A stretch of DNA of 32,000 nucleotides from an uncultured Thiomicrospira sp. Its GTDB lineage: Bacteria; Pseudomonadota; Gammaproteobacteria; CAKMZV01. Below, in pieces: positions 1 through 32,000 of the stretch. The stretch covers positions 803,339-835,338 of the forward strand of contig OZ239628.1 of the NCBI GenBank assembly GCA_965195345.1, read 5' to 3'. Made by a program: the position numbers and the translations under genes. The first letter of the stretch is position 1; every line of letters begins with the position of its first letter. Under the pieces are notes generated by a model, which did not search any database, was not told the DNA's origin, and saw only the letters and a list, made by a program, of their open reading frames with translations.

Positions 1-1
1 G

Positions 2-13514: not shown

Positions 13515-15986
13515 ATGTTAAAGAATTCAGAGAAAAAAATATATCACGTAAGTTGGGGGTCTCTACTACTTTTTGTCTTTTTATCTGCCTGTGGTGGTGG
13601 CGGTGGCGGTGGCGGTGATACAGCACCTCCGATTATTGCGAGCACAACACCAAATTTAAGTGTATCGACCAATGCCATAACACTCAATGAAGATTTTGGC
13701 ACTTTTATCATCAACACCACTGCTACCGATGCAGAAGATGGAACGTTGTCAGTAACCGTATCTGGACAGGCAGGCTTGATAACCACTGATATCACCACTG
13801 ATAGAATTACCTTAAATTCTGTTGCCAATGCTAATGGCGTAACTACACTTACTGTACGTGCTACCGATAGCGGAAATCTCTCCGCTTCCACCGAAGTAGT
13901 TGTCACCATCAACGCCGTCAATGATGCTCCAACGTTAAGTTTATCAACTACAAACTTAATCTTATTACCCAATAGTACTGGTAGGATAACTGCCGTTTTT
14001 TCGGATGTGGAAACAAGTAGTAACGCATTGAATTTTGCGTTCCCAGTAAATACAGCTTTGGTGCAGGCGAGTAGGGAAGGCAATGATGTCATCGTGCTGA
14101 TATCGAGTGTTGTTGCAGGCTCAACTACTTTTGTTGTTACCGTCACTGATCAAGGTAACTTAAGCGCTTCAGCAACAGCTCGAGTTACTGTTCTCTCTAA
14201 TGCTTTGGATGTCGCGTTAAATGTTAAACGCATTGATTTTTCTTGGGGCAACTTCCCTGAAGCAAATCATTACCGCATGCTCAGTAATGTCGATTTAAAC
14301 GCTGGTGGTGGTTTTATTGATGCTAGTAGTGCAAACTTGGTATTTTTGCCAAATAGTACAAATATTATCAATACTACAGTCTCTGCAATAGTGGATGTAG
14401 CACGCTATCTTCCTGCGGTTAATGATCCGCAGTATCTGCTACAAGCTTGTACCAGTGTGGATGATTCCGTTTGTTCTAATCTTGCGGAAGGAACTCTGAC
14501 CAATGCTCAGTTAGAAGGATTGATTGGTTATTTCAAAGCTTCTAATACGGGAATGGGAGATATATTTGGTGATGCTGTAGCAATAAGTGGTGATGGTAAT
14601 ACGCTTGCAGTCGGTGCTGCTTTTGAGGACAGCGACGCCAGGGGCATCAACGGGGATCAATCAGACAATGATGCAGGTAACGCTGGTGCAGTGTATGTTT
14701 TTGTACGCAACAGTGCAGGAACATGGACACAACAAGCATACATTAAAGCCTCGAACTCACAAGGAAATGATCAATTCGCTGCCAGTGTAGACCTAAGCAA
14801 TGATGGTAATACCTTATTGGTTGGTGCACGTTTTGAAGGGAGTGGCGCTACTGGTATTAACGGTGATCAATCCAACAATAATCTTGACCAATCTGGTGCA
14901 GGCTATATTTTTGTACGCAACAGTGGAGGCACATGGAACCAGCAAGCTTACGTCAAAGCCTCTAATACGGGTCGGATTGATCAATTTGGTGCAGCTATAG
15001 CAATAAGCGGTGAAAGTGGTGCTACCGCATTTGTTGGTGCGCCAAATGAGGACAGTGGTGCGACTGGCATCAACGGTAATGAATCTGATAGTGTTGGTGC
15101 TGTAACTAACTCTGGTGCAGTCTATGCTTTTGTGCGTGATAGCATTGGTGCGTGGAGTCAACAAGCCTATATCAAAGCATCTAATACAGGAGCTGAAGAT
15201 GATTTTGGTGAAGTTTTATCAGCGAGTAGAAATGGCAATACCGTCATCGTTGGTGCGCCAAATGAGGACAGCGTTGCCACGGGCATCAACGGGGATCAAT
15301 TAGACAATTCTACAGCTAACTCTGGTGCAGCCTATGTTTTCGTGCGTAGTAGTACGGATACATGGAGTCAACAAGCCTATATCAAAGCCTCTAATACAGG
15401 ATTTACTGATCGGTTTGGTGGAGCTGTATCGATAAGTGGTGATGGTAATACCATAGTCGTTGGTTCATCTTTTGAAGACAGCAACTCTACCGGTGTTAAT
15501 GGGGTTCAAACGAATAATGGCGCAAGCAACTCTGGTGCAGCCTATGTTTTTGTGCGCAGTAGTACGGGCAGATGGAGTCAACAAGCCTACCTAAAAGCCT
15601 CCAATACAGATACAAATGATCAATTTGGTATAGCTTTAGCAATAAGCGGTGATGGTAACTCCATCATTGTTGGTGCAGTTGGGGAAGGAAGCGATGCCAC
15701 AGGTATTAACGGTGTTCAAAGCAATGATCTCTCAAATAGGGGACCTCGTGGTGCAGCCTATCTCTTTGTGCGTAGTGGTACGACATGGAGTCAACAAGCC
15801 TACATCAAATCCTCGAATACAGGTATTTTGGATGAGTTTGGTAACTCTGTTTCAATAAGTAATGATGGTAAAACGTTTGCTGTTGGTGCACCCACTGAAG
15901 ATAGCACTGCCACCGGCATTAATGGCGATCAATCAAATAATGGTACTGGTATTGGTTCAAATGCTGGTGCAGTGTATTTGTATTAG
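13515..15986 (+). CDS. Paralog 3: 823-aa predicted lipoprotein, the shortest stalk (2 Ig-like units), with an FN3-like neck and a 7-blade FG-GAP propeller
   Basis: ATG at 13515 follows GTGAGGA (13504-13510). The N-terminus MLKNSEKKIYHVSWGSLLLFVFLSAC carries lipobox LSAC (Cys codon 13590-13592), followed by Gly x8. Neck 14217-14528, blades 14529-15983. Ends GAVYLY, TAG. Confidence 0.95.
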   Translation: MLKNSEKKIYHVSWGSLLLFVFLSACGGGGGGGGDTAPPIIASTTPNLSVSTNAITLNEDFGTFIINTTATDAEDGTLSVTVSGQAGLITTDITTDRITLNSVANANGVTTLTVRATDSGNLSASTEVVVTINAVNDAPTLSLSTTNLILLPNSTGRITAVFSDVETSSNALNFAFPVNTALVQASREGNDVIVLISSVVAGSTTFVVTVTDQGNLSASATARVTVLSNALDVALNVKRIDFSWGNFPEANHYRMLSNVDLNAGGGFIDASSANLVFLPNSTNIINTTVSAIVDVARYLPAVNDPQYLLQACTSVDDSVCSNLAEGTLTNAQLEGLIGYFKASNTGMGDIFGDAVAISGDGNTLAVGAAFEDSDARGINGDQSDNDAGNAGAVYVFVRNSAGTWTQQAYIKASNSQGNDQFAASVDLSNDGNTLLVGARFEGSGATGINGDQSNNNLDQSGAGYIFVRNSGGTWNQQAYVKASNTGRIDQFGAAIAISGESGATAFVGAPNEDSGATGINGNESDSVGAVTNSGAVYAFVRDSIGAWSQQAYIKASNTGAEDDFGEVLSASRNGNTVIVGAPNEDSVATGINGDQLDNSTANSGAAYVFVRSSTDTWSQQAYIKASNTGFTDRFGGAVSISGDGNTIVVGSSFEDSNSTGVNGVQTNNGASNSGAAYVFVRSSTGRWSQQAYLKASNTDTNDQFGIALAISGDGNSIIVGAVGEGSDATGINGVQSNDLSNRGPRGAAYLFVRSGTTWSQQAYIKSSNTGILDEFGNSVSISNDGKTFAVGAPTEDSTATGINGDQSNNGTGIGSNAGAVYLY
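13593..13616 (+). repeat. (GGY)8 in-frame microsatellite encoding Gly8 directly after the lipobox Cys of paralog 3
   Basis: ggt ggt ggc ggt ggc ggt ggc ggt, then gat. Confidence 0.9.
14217..15983 (+). other. Paralog 3 C-terminal head: FN3-like neck (14217-14528) plus seven FG-GAP blades (14529-15983)
   Basis: KRIDFSWGNFPEANHYRML neck. Seven blade cores: FGDAVAISGDGNT, FAASVDLSNDGNT, FGAAIAISGESGAT, FGEVLSASRNGNT, FGGAVSISGDGNT, FGIALAISGDGNS, FGNSVSISNDGKT. Confidence 0.75.
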
Positions 15987-16235: not shown

Positions 16236-19202
16236 ATGAAAATGAAACATTTAAAGTGCTGGGGGTTTCTATTGTCACTTGTTTTTCTATCTGCCTGCGG
16301 TGGCGGCGGCGGTGGCGGTGGCGGTGATACAGCACCTCCGATTATTGCGAGCACAACACCAAATTTAAGTGTATCGACCAATGCCGTAACACTCAATGAA
16401 GATTTTGGCACTTTTATCATCAACACCACTGCTACCGATGTAGAAGATGGAACGTTGTCAGTAACCGTATCTGGACAGGCTGGTTTGCTAACCACTGATA
16501 TTACCACTGGTCGAATTACCCTAACTTCTGTTGCCAATGCTAACGGCGTAACTACACTTACTGTACGTGCTACCGATAGCGGAAATCTCTCTGCTACCAC
16601 CGAAGTGGTTGTCACCATCAATGATGCTCCAACATTGACACTATCAACAACGAACCTCAGCCTCAGTGAAGATTTTGGCACTTTTGTCATCAACACCACA
16701 GCAAGTGATGCAGAAGATGGCGTGCTTCCCGTTGCAGTGACTGGACAAGATGCCAGTCTATTCGCCGTAACCACTTCTACCGATCAGATAATACTTACCT
16801 CCGTTGCTAATGCTAACGGCATAGCTACGCTTACAGTAAGCATTGTTGATAGTGGAAATCTCTCCGCTACCACCGAAGTGGTTGTTGTTGTCAATGCCAG
16901 TCCTACATTGACACTATCAACAACGAACCTCAGCCTCAATGAAGATTTTGGCACTTTTATCATCAACACCACTGCTACCGATGTAGAAGATGGAACGTTG
17001 TCAGTAACCGTATCTGGACAGGCTGGTTTGCTAACCACTGATATTACCACTGGTCGAATTACCCTAACTTCTGTTGCCAATGCTAACGGCGTAACCACAC
17101 TTACTGTACGTGCTACCGATAGCGGAAATCTCTCTGCTACCACCGAAGTGGTTGTCACCATCAATGATGCTCCAACGTTAAGTTTATCAACTACAAACTT
17201 AATCTTATTACCCAATAGTACTGGTAGGATAACTGCCGTTTTTGCGGATGTGGAAACAAGTAGTAACTTATTGACTTTTGTGATACAAGAAAATACAGCT
17301 TTGGTGCGGGTGAGTAGGCAAGGCAATGATGTCATCGTGCTGAGATCGAACACTGCGGCAGGCTCAACTACTTTAGTTGTTACCGTCACTGATGAAGGTG
17401 GGGCAAGCGCCTCAGAAACAGTTCGAGTTACTGTTCTCTCTAATGTTTTGAATGTCGCGTTAAATGTTAAACGCATTGATTTTTCTTGGGGCAACTTCCC
17501 TGAAGCAAATCATTACCGCATGCTCAGTAATGTCGATTTAACCGCTGGTGGTGGCTTTGTTGATGCTAGTAGTGCAAACTTGGTATTTTTGCCAAATAGT
17601 ACAAATATTATCAATACTACAGTCTCTGCAATAGTGGATGTAGCACGCTATCTTTCTGCGGTTAATGGACCAGAGTATCTGCTGCAAGCTTGTACCAGTG
17701 TGGACAACTCAGTTTGTTCTAATCTTGCGCAACAAACTCTGACCAATGCTCAGTTAGAAGGATTGATTGGTTACTTCAAAGCTTCTAATACAGGTGCTGA
17801 TGATAGGTTTGGTAGGGCTGTAGCAATAAGTGGTGATGGTAATACGCTTGCAGTCGGTGCTGCTTTTGAGGACAGCGACGCCAGGGGTATTAACGGCGGA
17901 ACAAATGATGCCCTCGCCGACTCTGGTGCAGTGTATGTTTTTGTACGCAACAGTGCAGGAACATGGGCACAACAAGCATACATTAAAGCCTCGAACTCAG
18001 GAGGAGATGATCAATTCGGTGCCAGTGTAGACCTAAGTAATGATGGTAATACCTTATTGGTTGGTGCACGTTTTGAGGACAGCGATGCGACTGGCATTAA
18101 CGGTGATGAAACAAACAATGATTCAAGAGCCTCTGGTGCAGCCTATATTTTTGTACGCAACAGTGGAGGCACATGGAGCCAACAAGCTTACGCCAAAGCC
18201 TCTAATACAGGATCTGATGATGACTTTGGTGAGGCTGTAGCAATAAGTGGTGATGGTAATACGCTAATTGTTGGTGCATCTGGTGAGGACAGCACCGCCA
18301 CGGGCATCAACGGGGATCAATTAGACAATTCTACAGCTAACTCTGGTGCAGCCTATGTTTTTGTGCGTAGTAGTACTGGTACATGGAGTCAACAAGTCTA
18401 CCTTAAAGCATCTAATGCAGAAGCCGGTGATAATTTTGGTAGAGCTTTATCGGCGAGCAGTAATGGCAATACCGTCATCGTTGCTGCGCCAAGTGAGGAC
18501 AGCGCTGCCACTGGCATCAATGGGAATCAATTAAATAATTCTACAGCTAACTCTGGTGCGGTCTATGTTTTCGTGCGTAGTAGTACTGGTACATGGAGTC
18601 AACAAGCCTATGTTAAAGCCTCTAATACAGGAACTAATGATGATTTTGGTTTTGCCTTGTCACTGAGCGATGATGGTAATACCATGGTCGTTGGTGCGCC
18701 TGCTGAAGACAGCAATTCTACCGGTGTTAATGGGGTTCAAACGAATAATGGCGTAAGTAACTCTGGTGCAGTCTATGTTTTTGTACGTAGTAGTACGGGC
18801 AGCTGGCGTCAACAAGCATATCTAAAAGCCTCCAATACAGATAATGACGATCTATTTGGTCATGCTGTAGCAATAAGCGGTGATGGTAATTCCATCATTG
18901 TTGGTGCAGTAGCTGAAGAAAGCGATGCCACAGGTATTAACGGCGATCAAACAAGCAATGCTACACGTTTTTCTGGTGCAGCCTATCTTTTTGTGCGTAG
19001 TGGTACGACATGGAGTCAACAAGCCTACATCAAAACAACGAACCCAGGCTTTTTTGATGAGTTTGGTGACGCTGTTTCAATAAGTAATGATGGTAAAACG
19101 TTTGCTGTTGGCGCACGCAATGAAGAAAGCAGTGCCACTGGTATCAATGGTGATCAAACAAACAATAGTCAAGATAACGCTGGTGCAGTGTATTTGTATT
19201 AA
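16236..19202 (+). CDS. Paralog 4: 988-aa predicted lipoprotein with 4 Ig-like units (A-B-A plus terminal), an FN3-like neck and a 7-blade FG-GAP propeller
   Basis: ATG at 16236; a second in-frame ATG at 16242 is an equally possible start. MKMKHLKCWGFLLSLVFLSAC carries lipobox LSAC (Cys codon 16296-16298), followed by Gly x9. Neck 17460-17771, blades 17772-19199. Ends GAVYLY, TAA. The head is most similar to that of paralog 3. Confidence 0.95.
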   Translation: MKMKHLKCWGFLLSLVFLSACGGGGGGGGGDTAPPIIASTTPNLSVSTNAVTLNEDFGTFIINTTATDVEDGTLSVTVSGQAGLLTTDITTGRITLTSVANANGVTTLTVRATDSGNLSATTEVVVTINDAPTLTLSTTNLSLSEDFGTFVINTTASDAEDGVLPVAVTGQDASLFAVTTSTDQIILTSVANANGIATLTVSIVDSGNLSATTEVVVVVNASPTLTLSTTNLSLNEDFGTFIINTTATDVEDGTLSVTVSGQAGLLTTDITTGRITLTSVANANGVTTLTVRATDSGNLSATTEVVVTINDAPTLSLSTTNLILLPNSTGRITAVFADVETSSNLLTFVIQENTALVRVSRQGNDVIVLRSNTAAGSTTLVVTVTDEGGASASETVRVTVLSNVLNVALNVKRIDFSWGNFPEANHYRMLSNVDLTAGGGFVDASSANLVFLPNSTNIINTTVSAIVDVARYLSAVNGPEYLLQACTSVDNSVCSNLAQQTLTNAQLEGLIGYFKASNTGADDRFGRAVAISGDGNTLAVGAAFEDSDARGINGGTNDALADSGAVYVFVRNSAGTWAQQAYIKASNSGGDDQFGASVDLSNDGNTLLVGARFEDSDATGINGDETNNDSRASGAAYIFVRNSGGTWSQQAYAKASNTGSDDDFGEAVAISGDGNTLIVGASGEDSTATGINGDQLDNSTANSGAAYVFVRSSTGTWSQQVYLKASNAEAGDNFGRALSASSNGNTVIVAAPSEDSAATGINGNQLNNSTANSGAVYVFVRSSTGTWSQQAYVKASNTGTNDDFGFALSLSDDGNTMVVGAPAEDSNSTGVNGVQTNNGVSNSGAVYVFVRSSTGSWRQQAYLKASNTDNDDLFGHAVAISGDGNSIIVGAVAEESDATGINGDQTSNATRFSGAAYLFVRSGTTWSQQAYIKTTNPGFFDEFGDAVSISNDGKTFAVGARNEESSATGINGDQTNNSQDNAGAVYLY
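16299..16325 (+). repeat. (GGY)9 in-frame microsatellite encoding Gly9 directly after the lipobox Cys of paralog 4
   Basis: ggt ggc ggc ggc ggt ggc ggt ggc ggt, then gat. Confidence 0.9.
16359..17171 (+). repeat. A-B-A unit block in paralog 4: A1 16359-16628, gene-2-type B unit 16629-16901, A2 16902-17171
   Basis: A1 (about 16395-16628) and A2 (about 16938-17171) lie 543 nt apart. By eye they differ at one base (ggcgtaacT vs ggcgtaacC) over about 237 nt. The unit between them reads like the paralog 2 B consensus (DGVLPVAVTGQDASLFAVTTSTDQIILTSVANANGIATLTVSIVDSGNLSATTEVVVVVN). Confidence 0.9.
17460..19199 (+). other. Paralog 4 C-terminal head: FN3-like neck (17460-17771) plus seven FG-GAP blades (17772-19199)
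   Basis: Same motifs. Seven cores: FGRAVAISGDGNT, FGASVDLSNDGNT, FGEAVAISGDGNT, FGRALSASSNGNT, FGFALSLSDDGNT, FGHAVAISGDGNS, FGDAVSISNDGKT. Confidence 0.75.
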
Positions 19203-19449
19203 ATACGTATATAGCTAAAAGGCAATTAGAGTTGCTTGATTAACCCACCATTATGTATTCATCAGGAGAACAGGCGCACAACTTTTTTACTTAATGTTTC
19301 GCTGTAAATGTTATGAACTGTTTGCATGTTTTCTCATGCTTTAATTTATAATGATTAGGATTGCTGGATTGTAGACATACTGCTTTTATCAAACACATAA
19401 ACTGTTGTGATAATTGTGATTTCATAGTTAAAATAAAATATAGGACTAA
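19203..19449 (+). promoter_or_regulatory. Full-length conserved intergenic cassette upstream of paralog 5, with two candidate sigma70-like promoters
   Basis: Distal candidate: TTGCAT 19322-19327, 19 nt, TATAAT 19347-19352. Proximal candidate: TTGTGA 19405-19410, 18 nt, TAAAAT 19429-19434; this would leave only about a 10-nt leader. Direct repeat TTGTGAT at 19405-19411 and 19414-19420. AGGA at 19442-19445. Confidence 0.4.
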
Positions 19450-22400
19450 ATGAAAATGAACCATTTAAAGTGCTGGGGATTTCTATTATCACTCGTTTTT
19501 TTATCTGCCTGTGGCGGTGGGGGTGGCGGCGATTCAACACCTCCGTCTACTAATACAGCACCAAGTTTAAGTCTCTCTGTCAATGCCCTAATGCTTGATG
19601 AAGATTTTGGCACTTTTGTCATCAATACCACTGCAACCGATGCAGAAGATGGGACACTGTCCGTAACTGTATCTGGACAGGCTGGTTTGCTAACCACTGA
19701 TGTCACCACTGGTCGAATTACCCTAACTTCTATTGCCAATGCTAACGGCACAACTACACTTACTGTACGTGCTACCGATAGCGGAAACCTCTCTGCTACC
19801 ACCGAAGTAGTTGTCACCATTAACGCCATCAATGATGCCCCGACATTTACTCTTGCTACAACAAACATTACTATCGTTGAAAATGCCACTGCTCGTCAAA
19901 CGATTTCCATTCCCAATGTAGTCGATGTTGACGGAAACGCACTGACCTTTTCAGTCATTGCCTCCACTTCTTTATTTAGTACTAACCCAACACCTGTTGT
20001 GTCTTTTTCAGATACAAGGGTGATAATCTCCGATACACAACCTACAGCTCAACTCTATTACAGCCTACTGCCCGACGTCACAGGCTCTGGCTTCATTCAA
20101 ATTGCTTTAACAGATGGCATAGAGACCCAACGTACGACCGTTACTGTTACTGTTACAGAAGTTAGAACTCCACCCCAAATTACCCAAGACTTTAGAACAC
20201 ATCGCTTCTTTGATGCGCGTGCAACGCGTGTAGGCGCTGTTGGAGGTGTCTTATTTGCAGCACGAGGTGCATTTACTGGATCGACTGAAACAACCTCAAC
20301 AGATGGTACGGGGAATTTTAGTAATCAATTAAACTTTGTCCGTTCCTTAGGAGGGAGTTTAGCCGAACTTTACACTGAGGAAACATACAACGCTTTATTG
20401 GGTTCTGTTTTGGTTTCCAATGGCACTGCAACAGCAGACTTTAATGATGATCGTTTTTGGCTTGGACTCACTGATACACCCAATGCTTTTGGCGCTTCTG
20501 TGTCAGATCAATCTTCCTCATTAGAGCGTTATTTTTGGTTGTCTGGTCAGCGGGTGTCACAAGGATTAGGTATTTCTCGTATAGAAGTTCCAGGAGTGTA
20601 CATAGGCTGGGGGTCATCCGCCCCAACTGCAAGCAATGAGCCCTGTGCTAATTTGATTCTTGGTGCCGAAGTATCTGCAGGGCTCAGACCTTGGGCAAGT
20701 ACTGGGTGCGATGGATCATCATCTGCTACTTTCAATGTGCTAAAAGCGTTGATGCAGTTCCCAAATGGCTTACCTACTACTTCTTCAATGATTGTTCAAG
20801 CGAGGCTCCCAATCACCCGTATTCGTTTAAGTGGTTATGATCTTGATGGTTCAGATAATACATTGTCTTGGCAAGTTACCGATGCATCTGGTGGTGGTAT
20901 CACTACTTCCACAGTCTATAGCAGTACTGGCGCACAAACCTTAGAGATTTCTTACACTCCTGTGAGCGGCTTTTCAGGCACTGCGACCCTTGTTGTAAGC
21001 TTAGATGATGGTGATAGTGCTACGCAAAATAGTACTGCCCGTGTATTGGTGGTTAATAACACACCAACTTTAATATTTTCCACCAATACTGTCAGCTTAG
21101 ATGAAGACTTTACCAGATTCGTCATTAACACCACTGCAACCGATGCAGCAGGGATAATCGACTTTAGTGTTAGCACAGGAAACGGTATTGTTTTTGTAAC
21201 CACCTCTGCTAATGCGATTACACTGCAATCACTTTCGAATATAAATGGTGCTGTAACCTTAACAGTCGTTGCGGATAGTGGTCTTTTGACAAATACACAG
21301 ACGATTAGCGTTGTGGTTAATCCAGTTAATGACACTCCCACGCTGTCTTTATCTGTGACGCAAAGGGTGCTTGCTCAAAACTTTGGCACTTTCGTCATCA
21401 ACACCACTGCAACCGATGTGGATTCAGGCCCATTGGGCTTTAGTGTCAGTACAGGTAATGGCATTGTTAATGTAACAACCTCTGTCAATACGATTACTCT
21501 GCAATCACTCGCTAATGTCATAGGCGATGTTACGTTAACGGTTAGCGTAAGCGATGGACTATTGACGACGACACAGTCCATTTTTATAACCGTTAGTAGA
21601 CCGTTTACGTTTGAAGTATCGACAAACACTATCGTTTTAGATGAAGATTTTAATACCTTCATTATTAACACCACTGCAACGGCTGCAGATGGGACTATAT
21701 TACCTATTTCAGTGGTGCAGAGCAGCTCTAACCTACTTACATTCAGCACTATAACTGGGCGCATTACCCTTTCATCTATTGCGAATGCTAATGGAGTAAC
21801 AACCCTTACCGTGAGTGCAGCTAATCAAAATGGACTAACGAACACGACAGAAGTAGCCATTACCGTTAATTCCGTTAATGATACTCCCACACTCAGTTTA
21901 TCAAGTACAGACTTAACTTTCTCACCTAATGGAACCGGTTTTATAACTGCTTTTGGTGCGGATGTGGAAACAAGCAGTGCCTCATTGATCTATTCTGTAC
22001 AACAAAACCCATCTTTGTTACAGGTGAGTACACCAGGCAATGTCATCGTACTGAGAGCGGGTGATACTACAGGCTCGACCACTTTAGTGATCACCGTTAC
22101 TGATGGCGGTGGTTCAAGCGCTTCAGCAACCGCTCGAGTTACTGTTTTATCAGGTGTTTTGAATGCTTTGAATGTAAGTTTAAATGTTAAACGCATTAAC
22201 TTTTCTTGGAACACACTTCCTACAGCAAATCATTACCGCATGCTTAGCAATGTTGATTTGAATGCTGGTGGTGGTTTTGTTGATGCCAGTAGCGCAGGCT
22301 TGGTGTTTGTACCGAATAGTACGAATATTATCAATACTACAGTCTCTGCAACAGTGGATGTAGCAGGCTATCTTTCTACGGCTGATGGACCACAGTACCT

Positions 22401-23922
22401 GCTACAAGCTTGTAGTAGTGTTGACAATTCCGCTTGTTCTAATCTTGCACAACAATCTCTGAGCAATATTCAGTTAGAGGGATTGATTGGTTATTTCAAA
22501 GCTTCTAATACAGATGCAGATGATGAATTTGGTGAGGGTGTCGCAATAAGCGGTGATGGCAACACATTAGTTGTCGGTGCACCATTTGAGGACAGCACCG
22601 CCACTGTCATCAACGGCGATGAATCAGACAATTCTAGAAGTGACTCTGGTGCAGCCTATGTTTTCGTGCGTAGTAGTACGGGCAGCTGGCGTCAACAAGC
22701 CTATATCAAAGCCTTTGATGCACAAGCCAATGGTCAGTCTAATTCAGCTGTACCAAGGAGCAATGATCAGTTTGGTGCAGCTGTAACAATAAGCAATGAC
22801 GGTAATACTATAGTTGTTGGTGCAGAATTTAAGGATGTTGCCGCTCCTGGCGGTTCCGTTCAGCCCAACACTGGTGCAGCCTATGTTTTCGTGCGCAGTA
22901 GTACCGGCAGCTGGCGTCAACAAGCTTTCATCAGCGCTTCTAATCTAAATGCCAATGATCGGTTTGGAAGAACTGTATCGGTCGCTGCTGATGGTAATAC
23001 ACTCGCTGTCGGTGCACCTTTAAAAAGCGTAAATGCTCTAACTTCTGTTGGTACAGCCTATGTTTTTGTACGCAGTAGTACAGATTCATCATGGAGTGAG
23101 CAAGCTTTATTTACACCACCTACTGTAATAATTAGTAGTAATTTTGGTTCTGCTGTATCGATGAGTGGTGATGGTAATACCATGGTCGTTGGTGCAAGTG
23201 GTGACCGAAGTAATGGCATGGGTATCAACGCTGATGAAGTCCCTACTAGTACTCCTCTTTTTAATTCTGGTGCAGCCCATGTTTTTGTACGCAGTAGTAC
23301 AGATAGTACATGGAGTCGGCAAGCTTATATTAGAGCCTCAAATCCAGGTAGTACTGATCTCTTTGGTGCAGCTGTATCGATGAGTGGTGATGGTAATACC
23401 ATGGTCGTTGGTGCACATCAAGAAGACAGCAATGCCACGGGAATCGGCGGGGGGCAAGGAGATGTTAGTAATCCTAATTCAAATTTTGGTGCAGCCTATG
23501 TTTTTGTGCGCAGTAGTACGGGCACATGGAGCCAACAAGAATATATCAAAGCCTCAAATACAGGATTTGGTGATGTGTTTGGTTTTGCTGTTTCAATGCG
23601 CAGTGATGGTAATGCGTTCGTTGTTGGTGCACCATTTGAGGACAGCAATGCCACGGGAATCAACGGGGTCCAAGGAGGTGGTGCTACTGACGCTGGTGCA
23701 GTCTATCTTTTTGTACGCAGTGGTACGACATGGCGTCAACAAGCCTACATCAAAGCCTCAAACACAGGAGCTGATGATGAGTTTGGTGACTCTGTTTCAA
23801 TAAGCAGTGATGGTAAAACGCTTGCTGTCGGTGCACCCAATGAAGATAGCAATGCCACTGGTATCAATGGTAATCAAACAGACGATAGTCAAGATGACGC
23901 TGGTGCAGTGTATTTGTATTAG
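19450..23922 (+). CDS. Paralog 5: 1490-aa predicted lipoprotein with 7 Ig-like units, a C-type-lectin-like insert, an FN3-like neck and a 7-blade FG-GAP propeller
   Basis: ATG at 19450 (alternative at 19456), with AGGA at 19442-19445. MKMNHLKCWGFLLSLVFLSAC carries lipobox LSAC (Cys codon 19510-19512), followed by Gly x6. CTLD-like 20191-20760, neck 22180-22491, blades 22492-23919. Ends GAVYLY, TAG. Confidence 0.95.
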   Translation: MKMNHLKCWGFLLSLVFLSACGGGGGGDSTPPSTNTAPSLSLSVNALMLDEDFGTFVINTTATDAEDGTLSVTVSGQAGLLTTDVTTGRITLTSIANANGTTTLTVRATDSGNLSATTEVVVTINAINDAPTFTLATTNITIVENATARQTISIPNVVDVDGNALTFSVIASTSLFSTNPTPVVSFSDTRVIISDTQPTAQLYYSLLPDVTGSGFIQIALTDGIETQRTTVTVTVTEVRTPPQITQDFRTHRFFDARATRVGAVGGVLFAARGAFTGSTETTSTDGTGNFSNQLNFVRSLGGSLAELYTEETYNALLGSVLVSNGTATADFNDDRFWLGLTDTPNAFGASVSDQSSSLERYFWLSGQRVSQGLGISRIEVPGVYIGWGSSAPTASNEPCANLILGAEVSAGLRPWASTGCDGSSSATFNVLKALMQFPNGLPTTSSMIVQARLPITRIRLSGYDLDGSDNTLSWQVTDASGGGITTSTVYSSTGAQTLEISYTPVSGFSGTATLVVSLDDGDSATQNSTARVLVVNNTPTLIFSTNTVSLDEDFTRFVINTTATDAAGIIDFSVSTGNGIVFVTTSANAITLQSLSNINGAVTLTVVADSGLLTNTQTISVVVNPVNDTPTLSLSVTQRVLAQNFGTFVINTTATDVDSGPLGFSVSTGNGIVNVTTSVNTITLQSLANVIGDVTLTVSVSDGLLTTTQSIFITVSRPFTFEVSTNTIVLDEDFNTFIINTTATAADGTILPISVVQSSSNLLTFSTITGRITLSSIANANGVTTLTVSAANQNGLTNTTEVAITVNSVNDTPTLSLSSTDLTFSPNGTGFITAFGADVETSSASLIYSVQQNPSLLQVSTPGNVIVLRAGDTTGSTTLVITVTDGGGSSASATARVTVLSGVLNALNVSLNVKRINFSWNTLPTANHYRMLSNVDLNAGGGFVDASSAGLVFVPNSTNIINTTVSATVDVAGYLSTADGPQYLLQACSSVDNSACSNLAQQSLSNIQLEGLIGYFKASNTDADDEFGEGVAISGDGNTLVVGAPFEDSTATVINGDESDNSRSDSGAAYVFVRSSTGSWRQQAYIKAFDAQANGQSNSAVPRSNDQFGAAVTISNDGNTIVVGAEFKDVAAPGGSVQPNTGAAYVFVRSSTGSWRQQAFISASNLNANDRFGRTVSVAADGNTLAVGAPLKSVNALTSVGTAYVFVRSSTDSSWSEQALFTPPTVIISSNFGSAVSMSGDGNTMVVGASGDRSNGMGINADEVPTSTPLFNSGAAHVFVRSSTDSTWSRQAYIRASNPGSTDLFGAAVSMSGDGNTMVVGAHQEDSNATGIGGGQGDVSNPNSNFGAAYVFVRSSTGTWSQQEYIKASNTGFGDVFGFAVSMRSDGNAFVVGAPFEDSNATGINGVQGGGATDAGAVYLFVRSGTTWRQQAYIKASNTGADDEFGDSVSISSDGKTLAVGAPNEDSNATGINGNQTDDSQDDAGAVYLY
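19513..19530 (+). repeat. (GGN)6 tract encoding Gly6 after the lipobox Cys of paralog 5 (identical tract at 24234-24251 in paralog 6)
   Basis: ggc ggt ggg ggt ggc ggc, then gat. Confidence 0.9.
20191..20760 (+). other. C-type-lectin-like domain (CTLD) inserted in the paralog 5 stalk
   Basis: FRTHRFFDARATRVG...LGGSLAELYTEETYNALLG...DDRFWLGLTD...ERYFWLSGQRVS...YIGWGSSAPTASNEPCANLILG...RPWASTGCDG...LKALMQF. Same motif order as in paralog 1. Confidence 0.55.
22180..23919 (+). other. Paralog 5 C-terminal head: FN3-like neck (22180-22491) plus seven FG-GAP blades (22492-23919)
   Basis: Same motifs, seven cores. Blades 1-4 closely resemble those of paralog 2, for example FKDV.APGG replacing the canonical EDSxATGING loop in blade 2. 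Confidence 0.75.
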
Positions 23923-24170
23923 AAGACGTATATAGCTAAAAGGCAATTAGAGTTGCTTGATTACCCCACCATTATGTGTTCATCAGGAGAACAGGCACAC
24001 AGCTTTTTTACTTAATGTTTCGCTGTAAATGTTATGAACTGTTTGCATGTTTTCTCATGCTTTAATTTATAATGATTAGGATTGCTGGATTGTAGACATA
24101 CTGCTTTTATCAAACACATAAACTGTTGTGATAATTGTGATTTCATAGTTAAAATAAAATATAGGACTAA
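23923..24170 (+). promoter_or_regulatory. Full-length conserved intergenic cassette upstream of paralog 6
   Basis: Near-identical copy of 19203-19449. TATAAT 24068-24073, TTGTGA 24126-24131, TAAAAT 24150-24155. Confidence 0.4.
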
Positions 24171-27100
24171 ATGAAAATGAACCATTTAAAGTGCTGGGGA
24201 TTTCTATTATCACTCGTTTTTTTATCTGCCTGTGGCGGTGGGGGTGGCGGCGATTCAACACCTCCGTCTACTAATACAGCACCAAGTTTAAGTCTCTCTG
24301 TCAATGCCCTAATGCTTGATGAAGATTTTGGCACTTTTGTCATCAATACCACTGCAACCGATGCAGAAGATGGGACACTGTCCGTAACTGTATCTGGACA
24401 GGCTGGTTTGCTAACCACTGATGTCACCACTGGTCGAATTACCCTAACTTCCATTGCCAATGCTAACGGCACAGCTACACTTACTGTACGTGCTACCGAT
24501 AGCGGAAACCTCTCTGCTACCACCGAAGTGGTTGTCACCATTAACGCCATCAATGATGCCCCGACATTTACTCTTGCTACAACAAACATTACTATCGTTG
24601 AAAATGCCACTGCTCGTCAAACGATTTCCATTCCCAATGTAGTCGATGTTGACGGAAACGCACTGACCTTTTCAGTCATTGCCTCCACTTCTTTATTTAG
24701 TACTAACCCAACACCTGTTGTGTCTTTTTCAGATACAAGGGTGATAATCTCCGATACACAACCTACAGCTCAACTCTATTACAGCCTACTGCCCGACGTC
24801 ACAGGCTCTGGCTTCATTCAAATTGCTTTAACAGATGGCATAGAGACCCAACGTACGACCGTTACTGTTACTGTTACAGAAGTTAGAACTCCACCCCAAA
24901 TTACCCAAGACTTTAGAACACATCGCTTCTTTGATGCGCGTGCAACGCGTGTAGGCGCTGTTGGAGGTGTCTTATTTGCAGCACGAGGTGCATTTACTGG
25001 ATCGACTGAAACAACCTCAACAGATGGTACGGGGAATTTTAGTAATCAATTAAACTTTGTCCGTTCCTTAGGAGGGAGTTTAGCCGAACTTTACACTGAG
25101 GAAACATACAACGCTTTATTGGGTTCTGTTTTGGTTTCCAATGGCACTGCAACAGCAGACTTTAATGATGATCGTTTTTGGCTTGGACTCACTGATACAC
25201 CCAATGCTTTTGGCGCTTCTGTGTCAGATCAATCTGCCTCAGTAGAGCGTTATTTTTGGTTGTCTGGTCAGCGGGTGTCACAAGGATTAGGTATTTCTCG
25301 TATAGAAGTTCCAGGAGTGTACATAGGCTGGGGGGCATCCGCCCCAACTGCAAGCAATCAGCCCTGTGCTAATTTGATTCTTGGTGCCGAAGTATCTGCA
25401 GGTCTCAGACCTTGGGCAAGTACTGGGTGCGATGGATCATCATCTGCTACTTTCAATGTGCTAAAAGCGTTGATGCAGTTCCCAAATGGCTTACCTACTA
25501 CTTCTTCAATGATTGTTCAAGCGAGGCTCCCAATCACACGTATTCGTTTAAGTGGTTATGATCTTGATGGTTCAGATAATACATTGTCTTGGCAAGTTAC
25601 CGATGCATCTGGTGGTGGTATCACTACTTCCACAGTCTATAGCAGTACTGGCGCACAAACCTTAGAGATTTCTTACACTCCTGTGAGCGGCTTTTCAGGA
25701 ACTGCGACCCTTGTTGTAAGCTTAGATGATGGTGATAGTGCTACGCAAAATAGTACTGCCCGTGTATTGGTGGTTAATAACACACCAACTTTAACACTCT
25801 CAACCAATGTTGTCAGCTTAGATGAAGACTTTACCAGCTTCGTCATTAACACCACTGCAACCGATGCAGCAGGGATAATCGACTTTAGTGTTAGCACAGG
25901 AAACGGTATTGTTTTTGTAACCACCTCTGCTAATGCGATTACACTGCAATCACTTTCGAATATAAATGGTGCTGTAACCTTAACAGTCGTTGCGGATAGT
26001 GGTCTTTTGACAAATACACAGACGATTAGCGTTGTGGTTAATCCAGTTAACGACACTCCCACGCTGTCTTTATCTGTGACGCAAAGGGTGCTTGCTCAAA
26101 ACTTTGGCACTTTCGTCATCAACACCACTGCAACCGATGTGGATTCAGGCCCATTGGGCTTTAGTGTCAGTACAGGTAATGGCATTGTTAATGTAACAAC
26201 CTCTGTCAATACGATTACTCTGCAATCACTCGCTAATGTCATAGGCGATGTGACGTTAACGGTTAGCGTAAGCGATGGACTATTGACGACGACACAGTCC
26301 ATTTTTATAACCGTTAGTAGACCGTTTACGTTTGAAGTATCGACAAACACTATCGTTTTAGATGAAGATTTTAATACCTTCATTATTAACACCACTGCAA
26401 CGGCTGCAGATGGGACTATATTACCTATTTCAGTGGTGCAGAGCAGTTCTAACCTACTTACATTCAGCACTATAACTGGGCGCATTACCCTTTCATCTAT
26501 TGCGAATGCTAATGGAGTAACAACTCTTACCGTGAGTGCGGCTAATCAAAATGGACTAACGAACACGACAGAAGTAGCGATTACCGTTAATTCCGTTAAT
26601 GACACTCCCACACTCAGCTTATCAACTACAAACTTAACTTTCTCACCTAATGGAACCGGTTTTATAACTGCTTTTGGTGCGGATGTGGAAACAAGCAGTG
26701 CCTCATTGATCTATTCTGTACAACAAAATCCATCTTTGTTGCAGGTGAGTACACCAGGCAATGTCATTGTACTGAGAGCGGATGATACTACAGGTTCGAC
26801 AACTTTAGTGATAACCGTTACTGATGGCGGTGGTTCAAGCGCTTCAGCAACTGCTCGAGTTACTGTTCTATCAGGTGTTTTGAATGCTTTGAGCGTAAGT
26901 TTAAATGTTAAACGCATTAACTTTTCTTGGAACACACTTCCTACAGCAAACCATTACCGTATGCTTAGCAATGTCGATTTGAACGCTGGTGGTGGTTTTG
27001 TTGATGCCAGTAGCGCAGGTTTGGTGTTTATACCGAATAGCACGAATATTATCAATACTACAGTCTCTGCAACAGTGGATGTGGCACGCTATCTTTCTAC

Positions 27101-28634
27101 GGCTGATGGACCACAGTATCTGCTGCAAGCTTGTAGTAGTGTGGACAATTTCGCTTGTTCTAATCTTGCACAACAATCTCTGAGCAATATTCAGTTAGAG
27201 GGATTGATTGGTTACTTCAAAGCTTCTAATACGGAAATGGGAGATGAATTTGGTGAGGGTGTCGCAATAAGTGGTGATGGCAACACATTAGTTGTCGGTG
27301 CACCCGGAGAAGATAGCGACGCCACCGGCATCAACGGCGATGAATCAGACAATTCTAGAAGTAACTCTGGTGCAGCCTATGTTTTCGTGCGCAGTAGTAC
27401 AGGCAGCTGGCGTCAACAAGCATACCTTAAAGCCTCTGATGCAGCAGATGATGATGGGTTTTCTTCAAGAGCTGTAACAATAAGCAATGACGGTAATACT
27501 ATAGTTGTTGGTGCACCACGCAAGGATGTTGCCGCTCCTGGCGGTAGCCCCCAGGGCAACACTGGTGCAGCCTATGTTTTCGTGCGCAGTAGTACCGGCA
27601 GCTGGCGTCAACAGGCTTTCATCAGCGCTTCTAATCTAAATGCCAATGATCAGTTTGGAACAGCTGTATCGGTTGCTGCTGATGGTAATACACTCGCTAT
27701 CGGTGCGCCTTCAAAAACTGTACGTACTATAGATTCTATGGGTCAATCTGTGAGCAGAGCTACTGCTGGTACAGCCTATGTTTTTGTACGCAGTAGTACA
27801 GATTCATCATGGAGTGAGCAAGCTATATTGACAGCACCTTTTGTAACGAGTTTTGCTTTTTTTGGTAATGCTGTATCGATGAGTGGTGATGGTAATACCA
27901 TGGTCGTCGGTGCAGACGGTGACCAAAGTACTGGCACGGGTATCGGCAGTGATGAATCCACCATTAATGATTTTGGTACCGGTGCTGCCCATGTTTTTGT
28001 ACGTAGTAGTACGGGTAGATGGAGTCGGCAAGAATATTTTAAAGCCTCAAATGCAGAAGGTACTGATCTCTTTGGTACAGCTGTATCGATGAGCGGTGAT
28101 GGTAATACCATGGTCGTTGGTGCACCAGGGGAAGACAGCAATGCCACGGGTGTCGACGGGGATCAAGCAAATAATGGTAGTGGTGTTAATTCAAATTCTG
28201 GTGCAGCCTATGTTTTTGTGCGCAGTAGTACGGGCACATGGACGCAAGAAGCCTATATCAAAGCCTCAAATACAGGAGATGGTGATGTGTTTGGTTCTGT
28301 TCTCTCAATGAGCAATGATGGTAATGCGTTCGTTGTTGGTGCACCAAATGAGGACAGCAATGCCACGGGAATCAACGGGGGGGAAGCAGGTGGTGCTAAT
28401 AACGCTGGTGCAGTCTATCTTTTTGTGCGCAGTGGTACGACATGGCGTCAACAAGCCTATACCAAAGCCTCAAACACAGGAGCTGATGATGCGTTTGGTG
28501 ACTCTGTTTCAATAAGCAGTGATGGTAAAACGTTTGCTGTTGGCGCATCTGGCGAAAATGGCAGCGCCACTGGTATCAATGGCGATCAAACAGACGATAG
28601 TCAAGATAACGCTGGTGCAGTGTATTTGTATTAG
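24171..28634 (+). CDS. Paralog 6: 1487-aa predicted lipoprotein, a tandem duplicate of paralog 5 with a diverged propeller
   Basis: Offset exactly 4721 bp from paralog 5. Identical signal peptide and lipobox (Cys codon 24231-24233). I count 16 aa differences from paralog 5 over the first 1014 aa. CTLD-like 24912-25481, neck 26901-27212, blades 27213-28631. Ends GAVYLY, TAG. Confidence 0.95.
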   Translation: MKMNHLKCWGFLLSLVFLSACGGGGGGDSTPPSTNTAPSLSLSVNALMLDEDFGTFVINTTATDAEDGTLSVTVSGQAGLLTTDVTTGRITLTSIANANGTATLTVRATDSGNLSATTEVVVTINAINDAPTFTLATTNITIVENATARQTISIPNVVDVDGNALTFSVIASTSLFSTNPTPVVSFSDTRVIISDTQPTAQLYYSLLPDVTGSGFIQIALTDGIETQRTTVTVTVTEVRTPPQITQDFRTHRFFDARATRVGAVGGVLFAARGAFTGSTETTSTDGTGNFSNQLNFVRSLGGSLAELYTEETYNALLGSVLVSNGTATADFNDDRFWLGLTDTPNAFGASVSDQSASVERYFWLSGQRVSQGLGISRIEVPGVYIGWGASAPTASNQPCANLILGAEVSAGLRPWASTGCDGSSSATFNVLKALMQFPNGLPTTSSMIVQARLPITRIRLSGYDLDGSDNTLSWQVTDASGGGITTSTVYSSTGAQTLEISYTPVSGFSGTATLVVSLDDGDSATQNSTARVLVVNNTPTLTLSTNVVSLDEDFTSFVINTTATDAAGIIDFSVSTGNGIVFVTTSANAITLQSLSNINGAVTLTVVADSGLLTNTQTISVVVNPVNDTPTLSLSVTQRVLAQNFGTFVINTTATDVDSGPLGFSVSTGNGIVNVTTSVNTITLQSLANVIGDVTLTVSVSDGLLTTTQSIFITVSRPFTFEVSTNTIVLDEDFNTFIINTTATAADGTILPISVVQSSSNLLTFSTITGRITLSSIANANGVTTLTVSAANQNGLTNTTEVAITVNSVNDTPTLSLSTTNLTFSPNGTGFITAFGADVETSSASLIYSVQQNPSLLQVSTPGNVIVLRADDTTGSTTLVITVTDGGGSSASATARVTVLSGVLNALSVSLNVKRINFSWNTLPTANHYRMLSNVDLNAGGGFVDASSAGLVFIPNSTNIINTTVSATVDVARYLSTADGPQYLLQACSSVDNFACSNLAQQSLSNIQLEGLIGYFKASNTEMGDEFGEGVAISGDGNTLVVGAPGEDSDATGINGDESDNSRSNSGAAYVFVRSSTGSWRQQAYLKASDAADDDGFSSRAVTISNDGNTIVVGAPRKDVAAPGGSPQGNTGAAYVFVRSSTGSWRQQAFISASNLNANDQFGTAVSVAADGNTLAIGAPSKTVRTIDSMGQSVSRATAGTAYVFVRSSTDSSWSEQAILTAPFVTSFAFFGNAVSMSGDGNTMVVGADGDQSTGTGIGSDESTINDFGTGAAHVFVRSSTGRWSRQEYFKASNAEGTDLFGTAVSMSGDGNTMVVGAPGEDSNATGVDGDQANNGSGVNSNSGAAYVFVRSSTGTWTQEAYIKASNTGDGDVFGSVLSMSNDGNAFVVGAPNEDSNATGINGGEAGGANNAGAVYLFVRSGTTWRQQAYTKASNTGADDAFGDSVSISSDGKTFAVGASGENGSATGINGDQTDDSQDNAGAVYLY
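24912..25481 (+). other. C-type-lectin-like domain (CTLD) inserted in the paralog 6 stalk
   Basis: Copy of the paralog 5 domain with 4 aa differences: SSSL to SASV (two changes), GSSAP to GASAP, SNEPC to SNQPC. Confidence 0.55.
26901..28631 (+). other. Paralog 6 C-terminal head: FN3-like neck (26901-27212) plus seven FG-GAP blades (27213-28631)
   Basis: Same motifs, seven cores. The FG of blade 2 is degenerate (SSRAVTISNDGNT). Blades 5-7 resemble those of paralog 2. Confidence 0.75.
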
Positions 28635-31700: not shown

Positions 31701-32000
31701 CACTGGCGCAGCTTATCTTTTTGTCCGTAGTAGCACTGGTTCGTGGAACCAACAAGCCTACATCAAAGCCTCAAATCCAGAGGAATTTGATGTTTTTGGT
31801 GCCAGAGTAGCGATAAGTGGTGATGGTAATACCCTAGCCGTTGGAGCGGATTCAGAAGATAGCAACGCCACTGGAATCAATGGCGATCAAACGAACAATG
31901 ATGCACTTCAATCCGGTGCAGTCTATGTTTATGCTCGTAGTGGTACCGATACATGGGCACAACAAGCCTACATCAAAGCCTCTAATACAGACGCATACGA
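28795..32000 (+). CDS. Paralog 7 (3'-truncated by window edge, absent from the ORF track): predicted lipoprotein with 6 Ig-like units, an FN3-like neck and at least 5 FG-GAP blades
   Basis: I translated it by hand from ATG 28795 (alternative 28801): MKMKHLKRWGFLLLFVFLTACGDDTTP..., lipobox LTAC (Cys codon 28855-28857). I met no stop codon in this frame through 31998. It has the same architecture as the other paralogs: DEDFGTFIINTTATDAEDG units, KRINFSW...ANHYRML neck at 30607-30918, blades from 30919. It is probably missing from the track because the ORF is not closed inside the window. Confidence 0.9.
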   Translation, partial: MKMKHLKRWGFLLLFVFLTACGDDTTPLSTNINTTPNLSLSVNTLTLDEDFGTFIINTTATDAEDGILPVTVFGQAGLLTTDVTTGQITLTSIANATGIATLTVRVVDSENLPVSTEVVVTVNAIDDTPVLTLSTTNLSLSEDFGTFIINTTATDVEDGVLSFTVSGQDTSVLTVRTSTNQIILTSVANATGTVTLTVSATDSEALTANTEVVVIINDIDDTPVLTISTTNLSLSEDFGTFIINTTEGDIEDGVLPFTVSGQDASILTVSTAINQIILTSVANANGTVTLTVSATDSEDLTVSTEVVVIINAVNDTPVLTLSTTNLSLSEDFGTFIINTTASDAEDGVLPVAVTGQDASLFAVTTSTDQIILTSVANANGTATLTVSIVDSGNLSTSTEVVVVVNAINDTPVLTLSTSNLSLDEDFGTFIINTTASDAEDGVLSFTVSGQDASVLTVSTSINQIMLTSVANANGTMTLTVSATDQGGLTTTAKITIVINPVDDNPILNLSATNFNLLMDTAAVLTAFGVDVDSSSAVLVYSAQQETPLLNQIQIASNTIALGAGNTLGSTTLVITVTNDRGLSTSATARVTVLSAISNTFLNVSLNVKRINFSWSMLPAANHYRMLSNVNLATARGFVDASSAHAVFAPNSTNIINTTVSATVNVARYLSTADRPEYLLQSCTSVDNSACSTYAQAALSNTQIKGLIGTFRPTWPDFGDQFTESLTFNGAGNIFVAGAPFESSDFTGINTFVLVGSNNRARASGAAYIFELSSTGTWSQRAYLKASNTGVGDFFGRSLAISGDGNTLAVGATLEDGTSTGVNGYQFSDNELQSGAVYVFVRSSAGAWSQQAYIKASNTEMYEQFGRALTVSSNGNTIFVGVPREATGLDGDQTRNGAPQSGGVYVFERNSSSVWSQTALIKASNLQAGDNFGEAVSVSSDGNVLLVGAPFEASLATGINGDQTNNAGNDTGAAYLFVRSSTGSWNQQAYIKASNPEEFDVFGARVAISGDGNTLAVGADSEDSNATGINGDQTNNDALQSGAVYVYARSGTDTWAQQAYIKASNTDAY
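29743..30024 (+). repeat. Gene-2-type B unit embedded as unit 4 of paralog 7
   Basis: About 29785-29968 matches the paralog 2 B-unit DNA almost base for base (ggcactttcatcatcaacaccactgcaagtgatgcagaagatggcgtgcttcccgttgcagtgactggacaagatgccagtctattcgccgtaaccacttctaccgatcag...). The flanking units of paralog 7 are a different, divergent type (GVLPFTVSGQDASILTVSTAINQ). Confidence 0.85.
30607..32000 (+). other. Paralog 7 C-terminal head (partial): FN3-like neck (30607-30918) plus FG-GAP blades from 30919 to the window edge
   Basis: KRINFSWSMLPAANHYRML neck. Blade 1 is degenerate (FGDQFTESLTFNGAGNIFVAGAPFESSDFTGINTFVLVGSNNRARASGAAYIFEL). Four more canonical blades follow, and a sixth begins at the window end. 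This is the most divergent head in the array. Confidence 0.7.

Follow-up and report, generated by a model that had tools for sequence, protein, structure and literature searches.

Stalk and head genealogies disagree in a tandem array of FG-GAP lipoprotein genes from an uncultured Thiomicrospira sp.

Shuffled tandem paralogs and the array

It has been described for the lpl tandem lipoprotein cluster of Staphylococcus aureus (nuSa-alpha island) that recombination at a conserved central region shuffles the variable 5' and 3' regions of the genes, that the 5' and 3' phylogenies are incongruent, and that strains vary by deletions, duplications, conversions and apparent substitutions (PMC2568036). 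Tandem non-identical paralogs whose copy number and composition shift between strains by recombination are also presented for the esaG/tsaI immunity genes of the type VII secretion system in Firmicutes; the products treated there are small cytoplasmic immunity proteins without a stalk-head build, unlike those of the locus considered here (PMC9484751). The subject of this report is a stretch of 32,000 nucleotides (nt) from an uncultured Thiomicrospira sp. (assembly GCA_965195345.1, contig OZ239628.1), further called the window, which equals positions 803339-835338 of a single-contig, 1.92-Mb genome that is 99.7% complete. Its seven same-strand genes (paralogs 1-7, or A8-A14) encode lipoproteins with a stalk and a propeller head, and they are the last half of a lipoprotein array of 14 tandem paralogs, A1-A14, at genome positions 760780-835648 (window -42558 to 32310; about 75 kb, 3.9% of the genome). 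The original prediction had covered the seven genes of the window; the array is twice as large. The stalks and the heads of these proteins have different genealogies, and it is very probable that recombination between paralogs has re-paired stalks with heads and that paralogs 5 and 6 are products of it.

The array possesses three of the defining features of lpl, in that tandem lipoprotein paralogs carry a conserved segment inside the open reading frame (ORF) between variable 5' and 3' parts, with incongruent 5' and 3' trees and with rearrangement at the level of strains. In contrast to lpl, the proteins of the array, which are apparently unrelated to those of the cluster, combine tandem-95 units with an FG-GAP propeller and show several breakpoints, including borders of blades and of stalk units, and the conserved unit spanning two adjacent genes in lpl is not general here (Spearman 0.05 between spacer and upstream blade 7 identities). 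The hosts differ as well: the genome in question is a streamlined one of 1.9 Mb, and its owner is probably marine and no pathogen. The array resembles lpl in mechanism only and is not a member of the lpl family. No prior description of an FG-GAP lipoprotein array of such kind was found in the open-access literature; recombinational shuffling is a known type of mechanism, to which the array adds unusually clear module borders.

Discordance between stalks and heads

In every protein of the array (820-2650 amino acids, aa) a lipobox signal is followed by a tandem-95 immunoglobulin (Ig)-like stalk, a terminal Ig unit called D, a neck of ~108 aa and a seven-blade FG-GAP propeller. Paralog 5 (A12; 19450-23922, plus strand; 1490 aa) comprises the lipobox signal, unit B (19561-19839), units G-H-E-F (19840-21885), unit D (21886-22158), the pre-neck insertion with the neck (22159-22482) and the seven-blade head (22483-23922); the interval 22180-23922, to which the original prediction was attached, is the neck and head of this gene (aa 911-1490). 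Paralog 6 (A13; 24171-28634, plus strand; 1487 aa) has the same architecture, with D at 26607-26879, the neck at 26880-27203 and the head at 27204-28634. Paralog 1 (A8; 1-5233, plus strand) is represented by the 3' 5.2 kb of a 2649-aa gene whose start lies 2716 nt ahead of the window; the stalk ends in the units G(CTLD)-H-E-F-D, with D at 3203-3475, and is followed by the neck (3476-3790) and a head of its own type (3791-5233). Paralog 2 (A9; 5484-13250, plus strand; 2588 aa) has D at 11214-11486, the neck at 11487-11810 and the head at 11811-13250.

The stalk units were clustered at 80% identity, with G* denoting a CTLD-like module of ~400 aa. Paralogs 5 and 6 both read B G* H E F D, and paralog 1 reads A I C B G* H J A C B G* H E F D. 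The motif of unit E, NQNFGTFVINTTATDV[DE]SGPLGF, the motif of unit F, FEVSTNTIVLDEDFNTF, and the CTLD-like module are confined within the window to paralogs 1, 5 and 6, and by unit clustering the whole G*-H-E-F cassette is exclusive to the same three genes there, which bears out the proposed grouping of paralogs 5 and 6 with paralog 1 by stalk. In the array as a whole the CTLD-H-E-F stalk also occurs in A1, A2, A3 and A7. The stalk of paralog 2 reads B, C, eleven A units, C, six A units and D; it has 20 tandem-95 units and is without CTLD, H, E and F. Its seventeen 'A' units (window 5586-11213) are near-identical, each 282 nt long, and form runs of 11 and 6 split by a 'C' unit, which looks like a recent in-gene repeat expansion.

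By head, paralogs 5 and 6 had been placed with paralog 2 on the basis of shared motifs, and all motifs quoted are present in the translations. The blade 2 motif KDV.APGG is non-canonical and common to the three heads, although paralog 6 reads RKDV and not FKDV as had been written; the blade 3 motif FISASNLNAND.FG..VSVAADGNT and the motif of blades 4-5, VSMSGDGNTMVVGA, are common to all three as described. The 3-aa insertion before the neck is likewise found in paralogs 2, 5 and 6, but there is an insertion at that site in paralog 7 too, which had been left unmentioned. At the nucleotide level A9, A12 and A13 are mutually 82-94% identical in every blade and ~80% or less identical to other paralogs, with the exception of blade 7, where A11 reaches 84-87% against A9/A12/A13 and A10 and A6 are marginally close. 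The head of A8 is just 64-78% identical to those of A12/A13. The head tree of the 14 genes contains the groups (A9,A12,A13), (A10,A11), (A2,A3,A4) and (A1,A5), each with 100% bootstrap, and A8 and A14 stand apart; the further statement that paralogs 3 and 4 share a third head type, and that paralogs 1 and 7 have one each, agrees with this tree. One stalk cassette is found under five head classes, and two types of stalk occur with each of the head classes h1 and h2. The head classes (A1,A5) and (A2,A3,A4) are also carried by differing stalk architectures, and they are further cases of stalk-head re-pairing.

Stalk and head trees were compared on the seven genes having both parts. The stalk tree contains (A8,(A12,A13)) with 96% and (A3,A7) with 100% bootstrap, the head tree of the same genes contains (A2,A3) with 100%, and each tree is rejected by the other partition in the approximately unbiased (AU) test (p = 8e-11 and about 1e-56). 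The genealogies are therefore clearly incongruent, just as the original prediction had maintained. When a clade of A8, A12 and A13 is imposed on all 14 genes, the log-likelihood (lnL) of the head falls by 223 units (AU p = 7e-71) and that of the neck by 17 units (p 0.009), and unit D accepts either grouping. A test of the pairwise homoplasy index (PHI) type gives z = -14.6 from D to the stop codon and z = -10.3 inside the head. The synonymous distance (dS) of A12 and A8 is 0.22 in the stalk (G-F), 0.22 in the neck and 0.61 in the head; for A12 and A9, which have no homologous stalk units, it is 0.07 in the neck and 0.11 in the head, and for A12 and A13 it is 0.023 in the stalk, 0.16 in the neck and 0.16 in the head (0.13-0.16 across D, neck and head).

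The switch from paralog-1-like to paralog-2-like sequence in paralog 5 likely lies at 22135-22160 (plus strand), at the end of unit D and the 3-aa LN(A/V) insertion. The informative sites of the A12/A8/A9 triplet are A8-like up to alignment columns 110-117 and A9-like beyond them (maximum chi-square 107, permutation p <= 0.001), and when paralog 5 is painted in windows of 180 nt, A8 matches at 96-100% through E-F, D is mixed, and A9 matches at 97% from the neck on. The position around the terminal Ig unit and neck, where the switch had been expected, is thus confirmed, the neck already siding with A9 and unit D being undecided. In a GARD-like scan of the seven-gene set the best single breakpoint falls at the neck/blade-1 border, with a gain in the corrected Akaike information criterion (AICc) of -745; this gain mixes rate differences with topology, and the topology part was separated out by giving each partition its own branch lengths, after which the difference in topology still costs ~100 lnL units to either side of the breakpoint. 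A near-identical tract, 19147-21845 (plus strand), is 97-100% identical to 23868-26566 on the side of paralog 6; it begins in the final ~100 nt of the head upstream, runs through the spacer and then, in paralog 5, through the signal peptide and units B-G-H-E-F, and ends at the F/D border. It is a recent duplication or conversion tract. Because the ends indicated by triplet, scan and tract differ, several breakpoints and not one lie between F and blade 1. The picture is one of several events with several breakpoints, at the F/D border, before the neck, at the neck/blade-1 border and at blade borders.

The same combination is present in a second strain, strain M (ENA assembly ERZ25066422, contig_40, 317 kb), which holds the end of the array between flanks 98.4-99.0% identical to this genome. 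Its genes follow in the order M1 (A8 type), M2 (A10 type), M3 and M4 (A12/A13 type) and M5 (A14 type). M3 has the B-G*-H-E-F-D stalk, an A9-type head, the private 11-aa insert of A12 and short blade-3 and blade-4 loops; since it carries the same stalk-head chimera, the chimera predates the split of the strains and is no accident of assembly. Blades 3-4 of M4 are of the canonical kind. The heads of positional partners are 99.0% (A14-M5), 95.7% (A8-M1), 90.9% (A12-M3), 83.9% (A13-M4) and 77.8% (A10-M2) identical at the nucleotide level, D and the neck of the last pair reaching ~95%. A14 and M5 are 98-100% identical from unit D to the end and differ in the 5' part, which brings the whole gene to about 92%. 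In the fetched part of the array of strain M no intact A9- or A11-like gene was found, and at the A9 position the M1-M2 spacer (L013:6537-7304, 768 nt) is the relic of a deleted gene, in which ~108 nt of neck end and blade-1 start are joined to ~230 nt of the last blade; the 492 nt made up of the last-blade piece and the rest of the spacer are 84% identical to the 3' end of A9 and the spacer downstream. It was also observed that paralog 3 (13515-15986) and M2 (L013:7305-9752) are 93-98% identical in stalk, D and neck and only 77.8% in the head, a head replacement between the strains.

Recombination and its alternatives

According to the preferred account, homologous recombination between paralogs, by unequal crossing-over and gene conversion, would repeatedly re-pair stalks and heads, and the exchange would start in the segments that all copies have in common, chiefly the neck and the terminal Ig unit. 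Paralogs 5 and 6 group with paralog 1 over the stretch between the CTLD module and unit F, and with paralog 2 between the pre-neck insertion and the stop codon. Between head classes no segment is better conserved than the neck, whose mean nucleotide identity is 87.9% compared to 83.7% for unit D and 69-79% for the blades. Exact tracts shared by necks of different head classes have a median longest length of 41 nt and a maximum of 171 nt, and 99% of pairs have at least 25 nt. In RecA-dependent recombination of Escherichia coli, exact tracts of roughly 20-30 nt suffice to start an exchange. Conservation and exact tracts together make it plausible that the neck acts as the recombination substrate, as had been suggested, and RecA-type recombination may be taken as the probable agent. 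The re-pairing itself stands, but the term 'head swapping', under which it was first put forward, is too specific, as a swap of heads is not distinguishable from a swap of stalks.

Exchange is not limited to the neck. The head of A13 is 87% identical to that of A12 and 88% to that of A9, and the nearer one changes from blade to blade: of the three members of the A9/A12/A13 head type, blade 2 pairs A9 most closely with A12, blades 4 and 5 pair it with A13, blades 3 and 6 unite A12 and A13, and in blade 7 A10 and A11 nest within the A9/A12/A13 clade. The stalks are mosaic in a similar manner. Over its first 130 aa, which make up the signal peptide and unit B, paralog 5 is nearest to A5 and A6, at 95-98%; in G*-H, paralogs 5 and 6 have as their sister the first of the CTLD copies of A8 (98%), and their E-F units are nearest to the E-F units behind the second CTLD copy of A8, the likeness of paralogs 5 and 6 to paralog 1 in E-F amounting to 97-99% (97.4% nucleotide identity between A8 and A12). 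The E-F units (window 21337-21885 of paralog 5; 1654-3202 region of paralog 1) cluster by genome and not by gene, since their tree contains (A8b,(A12,A13)) with 97% and ((M3,M4),M1b) with 99%, and unit F of A12 is 98.6% identical to that of A8b and 88.9% to that of M3. This indicates that gene conversion took place between paralog 1 and paralogs 5/6 after the strain split, and recent conversion of E-F within the genome accounts for some of the resemblance between the stalks of paralogs 5 and 6 and that of paralog 1.

Several points weigh against the explanation by re-pairing among paralogs. Much of the tree conflict among the seven two-part genes comes from A3, whose partner is A7 by stalk and A2 by head. 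The stalk side of the comparison of paralogs 5/6 with paralog 2 rests on architecture and the short unit D, because paralog 2 is without CTLD, H, E and F. More than one direction and number of events would fit, and paralog 2 could be the derived chimera instead. A general linkage of upstream head, spacer and 5' end, as from unequal crossing-over at one central site, was considered and rejected, for the pairwise identities of spacers correlate with those of the downstream 5' end (Spearman 0.55) and only at 0.05 with those of the upstream blade 7; single cases nevertheless fit such linkage, as the head upstream already contributes its tail to the A12/A13 tract and A2 and A6 lie behind near-identical heads. 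Finally, no read or contig was found to run across the stalk-head joint in the four public runs with sequence (share of sampled words 0.34-0.64), whose Logan contigs are ~100 nt long here, do not span F to blade 1 and neither back nor contradict the assembly.

The alternative that survives best is import, in which the discordant heads were acquired by homologous recombination with the DNA of other strains through double crossovers in the conserved neck and spacer; as the explanation of the discordance it is possible, but rather unlikely. The model of Tsuru and Kobayashi for lpl includes import from other strains (PMC2568036). Despite flanks of 98.4-99% identity, positional orthologs have much more divergent heads than D units and necks, as is seen in A10-M2 (77.8% against ~95%) and in A13-M4 (83.9%), and the head of M2 is without a good match among the paralogs of this genome (mostly 75-87% per 180-nt window), which argues that it came from a pool outside this genome. 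Against import as the main route, both donor types, the A8-like stalk and the A9-like head, sit in the same array, and the clustering of E-F by genome as well as the 99-100% likeness of the A12 and A13 stalks need exchange within one genome. The two routes are compatible, and import of heads probably contributes alongside recombination between paralogs, within-genome homogenisation being beyond its reach.

It is much less probable, and indeed very improbable, that the chimeric genes are artefacts in which reads of different paralogs were joined across the conserved neck. The array is rich in tracts of 90-100% identity, which would favour such errors, but the independent assembly of strain M has the same architecture twice, with M3 carrying the private 11-aa insert of A12 together with the short blade-3 loop; moreover, the genome was assembled into a single contig of 1.92 Mb with a completeness of 99.7%, the open frame is intact in each of the 14 genes, and the affinity of paralog 5 shifts gradually through unit D with no sharp joint. 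Least credible of all is an origin without recombination, by convergent or parallel selection on the heads of paralogs 2, 5 and 6 or by stalks merely evolving more slowly: the heads are ~three to five times more diverged than the stalks across the family, and the AICc gain of the breakpoint scan is inflated because this rate heterogeneity is real, but convergence and plain rate differences are excluded because synonymous distances show the same discordance (head dS 0.11 for A12-A9 and 0.61 for A12-A8), shared indels agree with recombination, and the ~100 lnL conflict remains with own branch lengths.

Two other generators of variation were considered and set aside. A diversity-generating retroelement was rejected as the source of head variation, since no reverse transcriptase (RVT_1, PF00078) was found in the 99.7%-complete genome by a search in which control genomes scored. 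Antigenic variation from silent cassettes, of the pilE/pilS or vlsE type, was rejected because all 14 copies are full-length open frames, each with its own start codon and lipobox signal peptide, and not truncated donors.

The array as a probable surface-protein locus

By motif (L-[AS]-[GA]-C), a lipobox, LSAC or LTAC, is present in 14 of 14 array genes at residues ~17-25 and is followed by a glycine-rich linker. The linker behind the lipobox cysteine (e.g. window 19510-19535) is a mixed (GGY)n tract of 1-9 codons which varies among paralogs and strains; phase variation by this glycine run was rejected, because the tract is in frame and not a homopolymer and therefore alters the length of the linker and forms no on/off switch. 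The stalk units have ~94 aa, and paralog 5 scores 112.1 bits in five stretches against the tandem-95 model NF012211 (NCBIfam; cut-off 90 bits), with the short-stalk paralog 3 at only 28.3 bits, under the cut-off. In a Pfam scan FG-GAP_2 (PF14312) matches paralog 5 with 189.6 bits (gathering cut-off 23, E 8e-57) in seven stretches, and paralogs 1 and 3 also have seven; the other matches are Big_9 and Cadherin_4, both weak and in the stalk, and weak chance matches. Homologs of the propeller alone number in the thousands among bacterial FG-GAP_2 propellers, at 40-52% identity and on many kinds of stalk, and homology search finds the neck in only a few proteins. Blades 2-4 of the paralog 2/5/6 head are without the EDS.ATGINGDQ loop usual in the FG-GAP_2 family.

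The AlphaFold2 model of paralog 5 aa 905-1490 (predicted local distance difference test 86.2, predicted template modelling score 0.84) consists of a beta-sandwich neck followed by a seven-blade propeller, and its top 20 Foldseek matches are all integrin alpha headpieces (best E 2.8e-16). The likeness to integrin alpha lies in the seven FG-GAP blades, the best structures being alpha5, alpha4, alpha6 and alphaV (E 3e-16 to 1e-13, template modelling score 0.5-0.65). In contrast to integrins, to which identity is just 14-17%, the array head is lipid-anchored through a long Ig-like stalk, and the beta-subunit partner is an integrin feature for which no counterpart is known here. The proteins are predicted to be surface-exposed binders.

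Paralog 3 (A10; 13515-15986, plus strand; units B K) and paralog 4 (A11; 16236-19202, plus strand; units B A B L) have short stalks and a common head type; paralog 4 is without the usual N..ND linker residues between units. Paralog 7 (A14; plus strand) runs from 28795 to the window end at 32000 and on to 32310 outside it, and joins a stalk of units B A A A M N to the most divergent head of the array. Upstream of the window, A1 reads A C A C B G* H E F D, A2 and A3 read A C A C A C B B A G* H E F D, A4 reads A C A D, A5 reads B I C A C B B E F D, A6 reads B I A E F D and A7 reads A I C A C B A G* H E F D. Twelve of the 13 array spacers measure 160-264 nt, and the spacer before A3 is ~2 kb; this A2-A3 gap (window -29978 to -27959) is the only long one in the array and contains no family ORF.

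Downstream of paralog 7, ~17 kb and ~8 kb of extra DNA relative to strain M (window 32471-49751 and 51028-59285) lie between the array and a patatin-like gene and include ORFs of 505 and 1589 aa, so that a flexible island adjoins the array. Three more distant relatives of the array genes sit elsewhere in the genome. Two related lipoprotein genes form a second locus (genome 1229300-1236556, minus strand), the first of them encoding 1099-1201 aa here and 1745 aa in strain M, and a lone third gene is found at 1824995-1828846 (plus strand). A candidate for a third strain, reached through protein P0104, was dropped because its contig is the copy of the two-gene locus 1229300-1236556 in the same ENA assembly and not the array. 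Both sister species of the genus have dozens of FG-GAP propeller ORFs, partly arrayed (G001:C1, about 1.29-1.37 Mb), with frames up to ~14,800 aa.

The ratio of nonsynonymous to synonymous distances (dN/dS) is 0.84-0.98 within the A9/A12/A13 head type, 0.35-0.56 for other head pairs and about 0.3 for stalks. Amino-acid differences within the A9/A12/A13 type are located in loops between conserved strand motifs, a pattern that fits either diversifying selection or relaxed constraint. Unit D of paralogs 3 and 4 (window 14000-14280 and 16720-17000) has dN 0.14 and dS 0.056, a ratio of 2.5 over 92 codons, which is a small sample; it is the only segment with dN clearly above dS. It may be that selection for surface diversity keeps the shuffling going. 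As a tentative and rather speculative extension, the array could be a combinatorial surface-receptor system, with D and neck kept alike as the recombination joint for heads, blades and stalk cassettes. If this were true, these modules could be re-paired at speed, and strains of one species that are 99% identical elsewhere would present differing binding surfaces nearer to or farther from the cell. Phages, grazers or particle ligands would then be what drives the process, and the unmatched M2 head and the loop-concentrated dN/dS near 1 would be its marks.

Streamlined bacterial genomes carry few paralogs, and flexible surface loci are commonly tied to pressure from phages or grazers and to the differing niches of strains. 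Here a genome of 1.92 Mb devotes ~75 kb (3.9%) to one family of stalked integrin-like surface proteins. Whole-gene trees of the array family mislead, and the array provides a natural map of module borders that tolerate recombination, which aids the annotation of giant mosaic genes and the judging of their assemblies. The array is a hotspot of strain-level surface variation, differing sharply between strains that are otherwise 99% identical.

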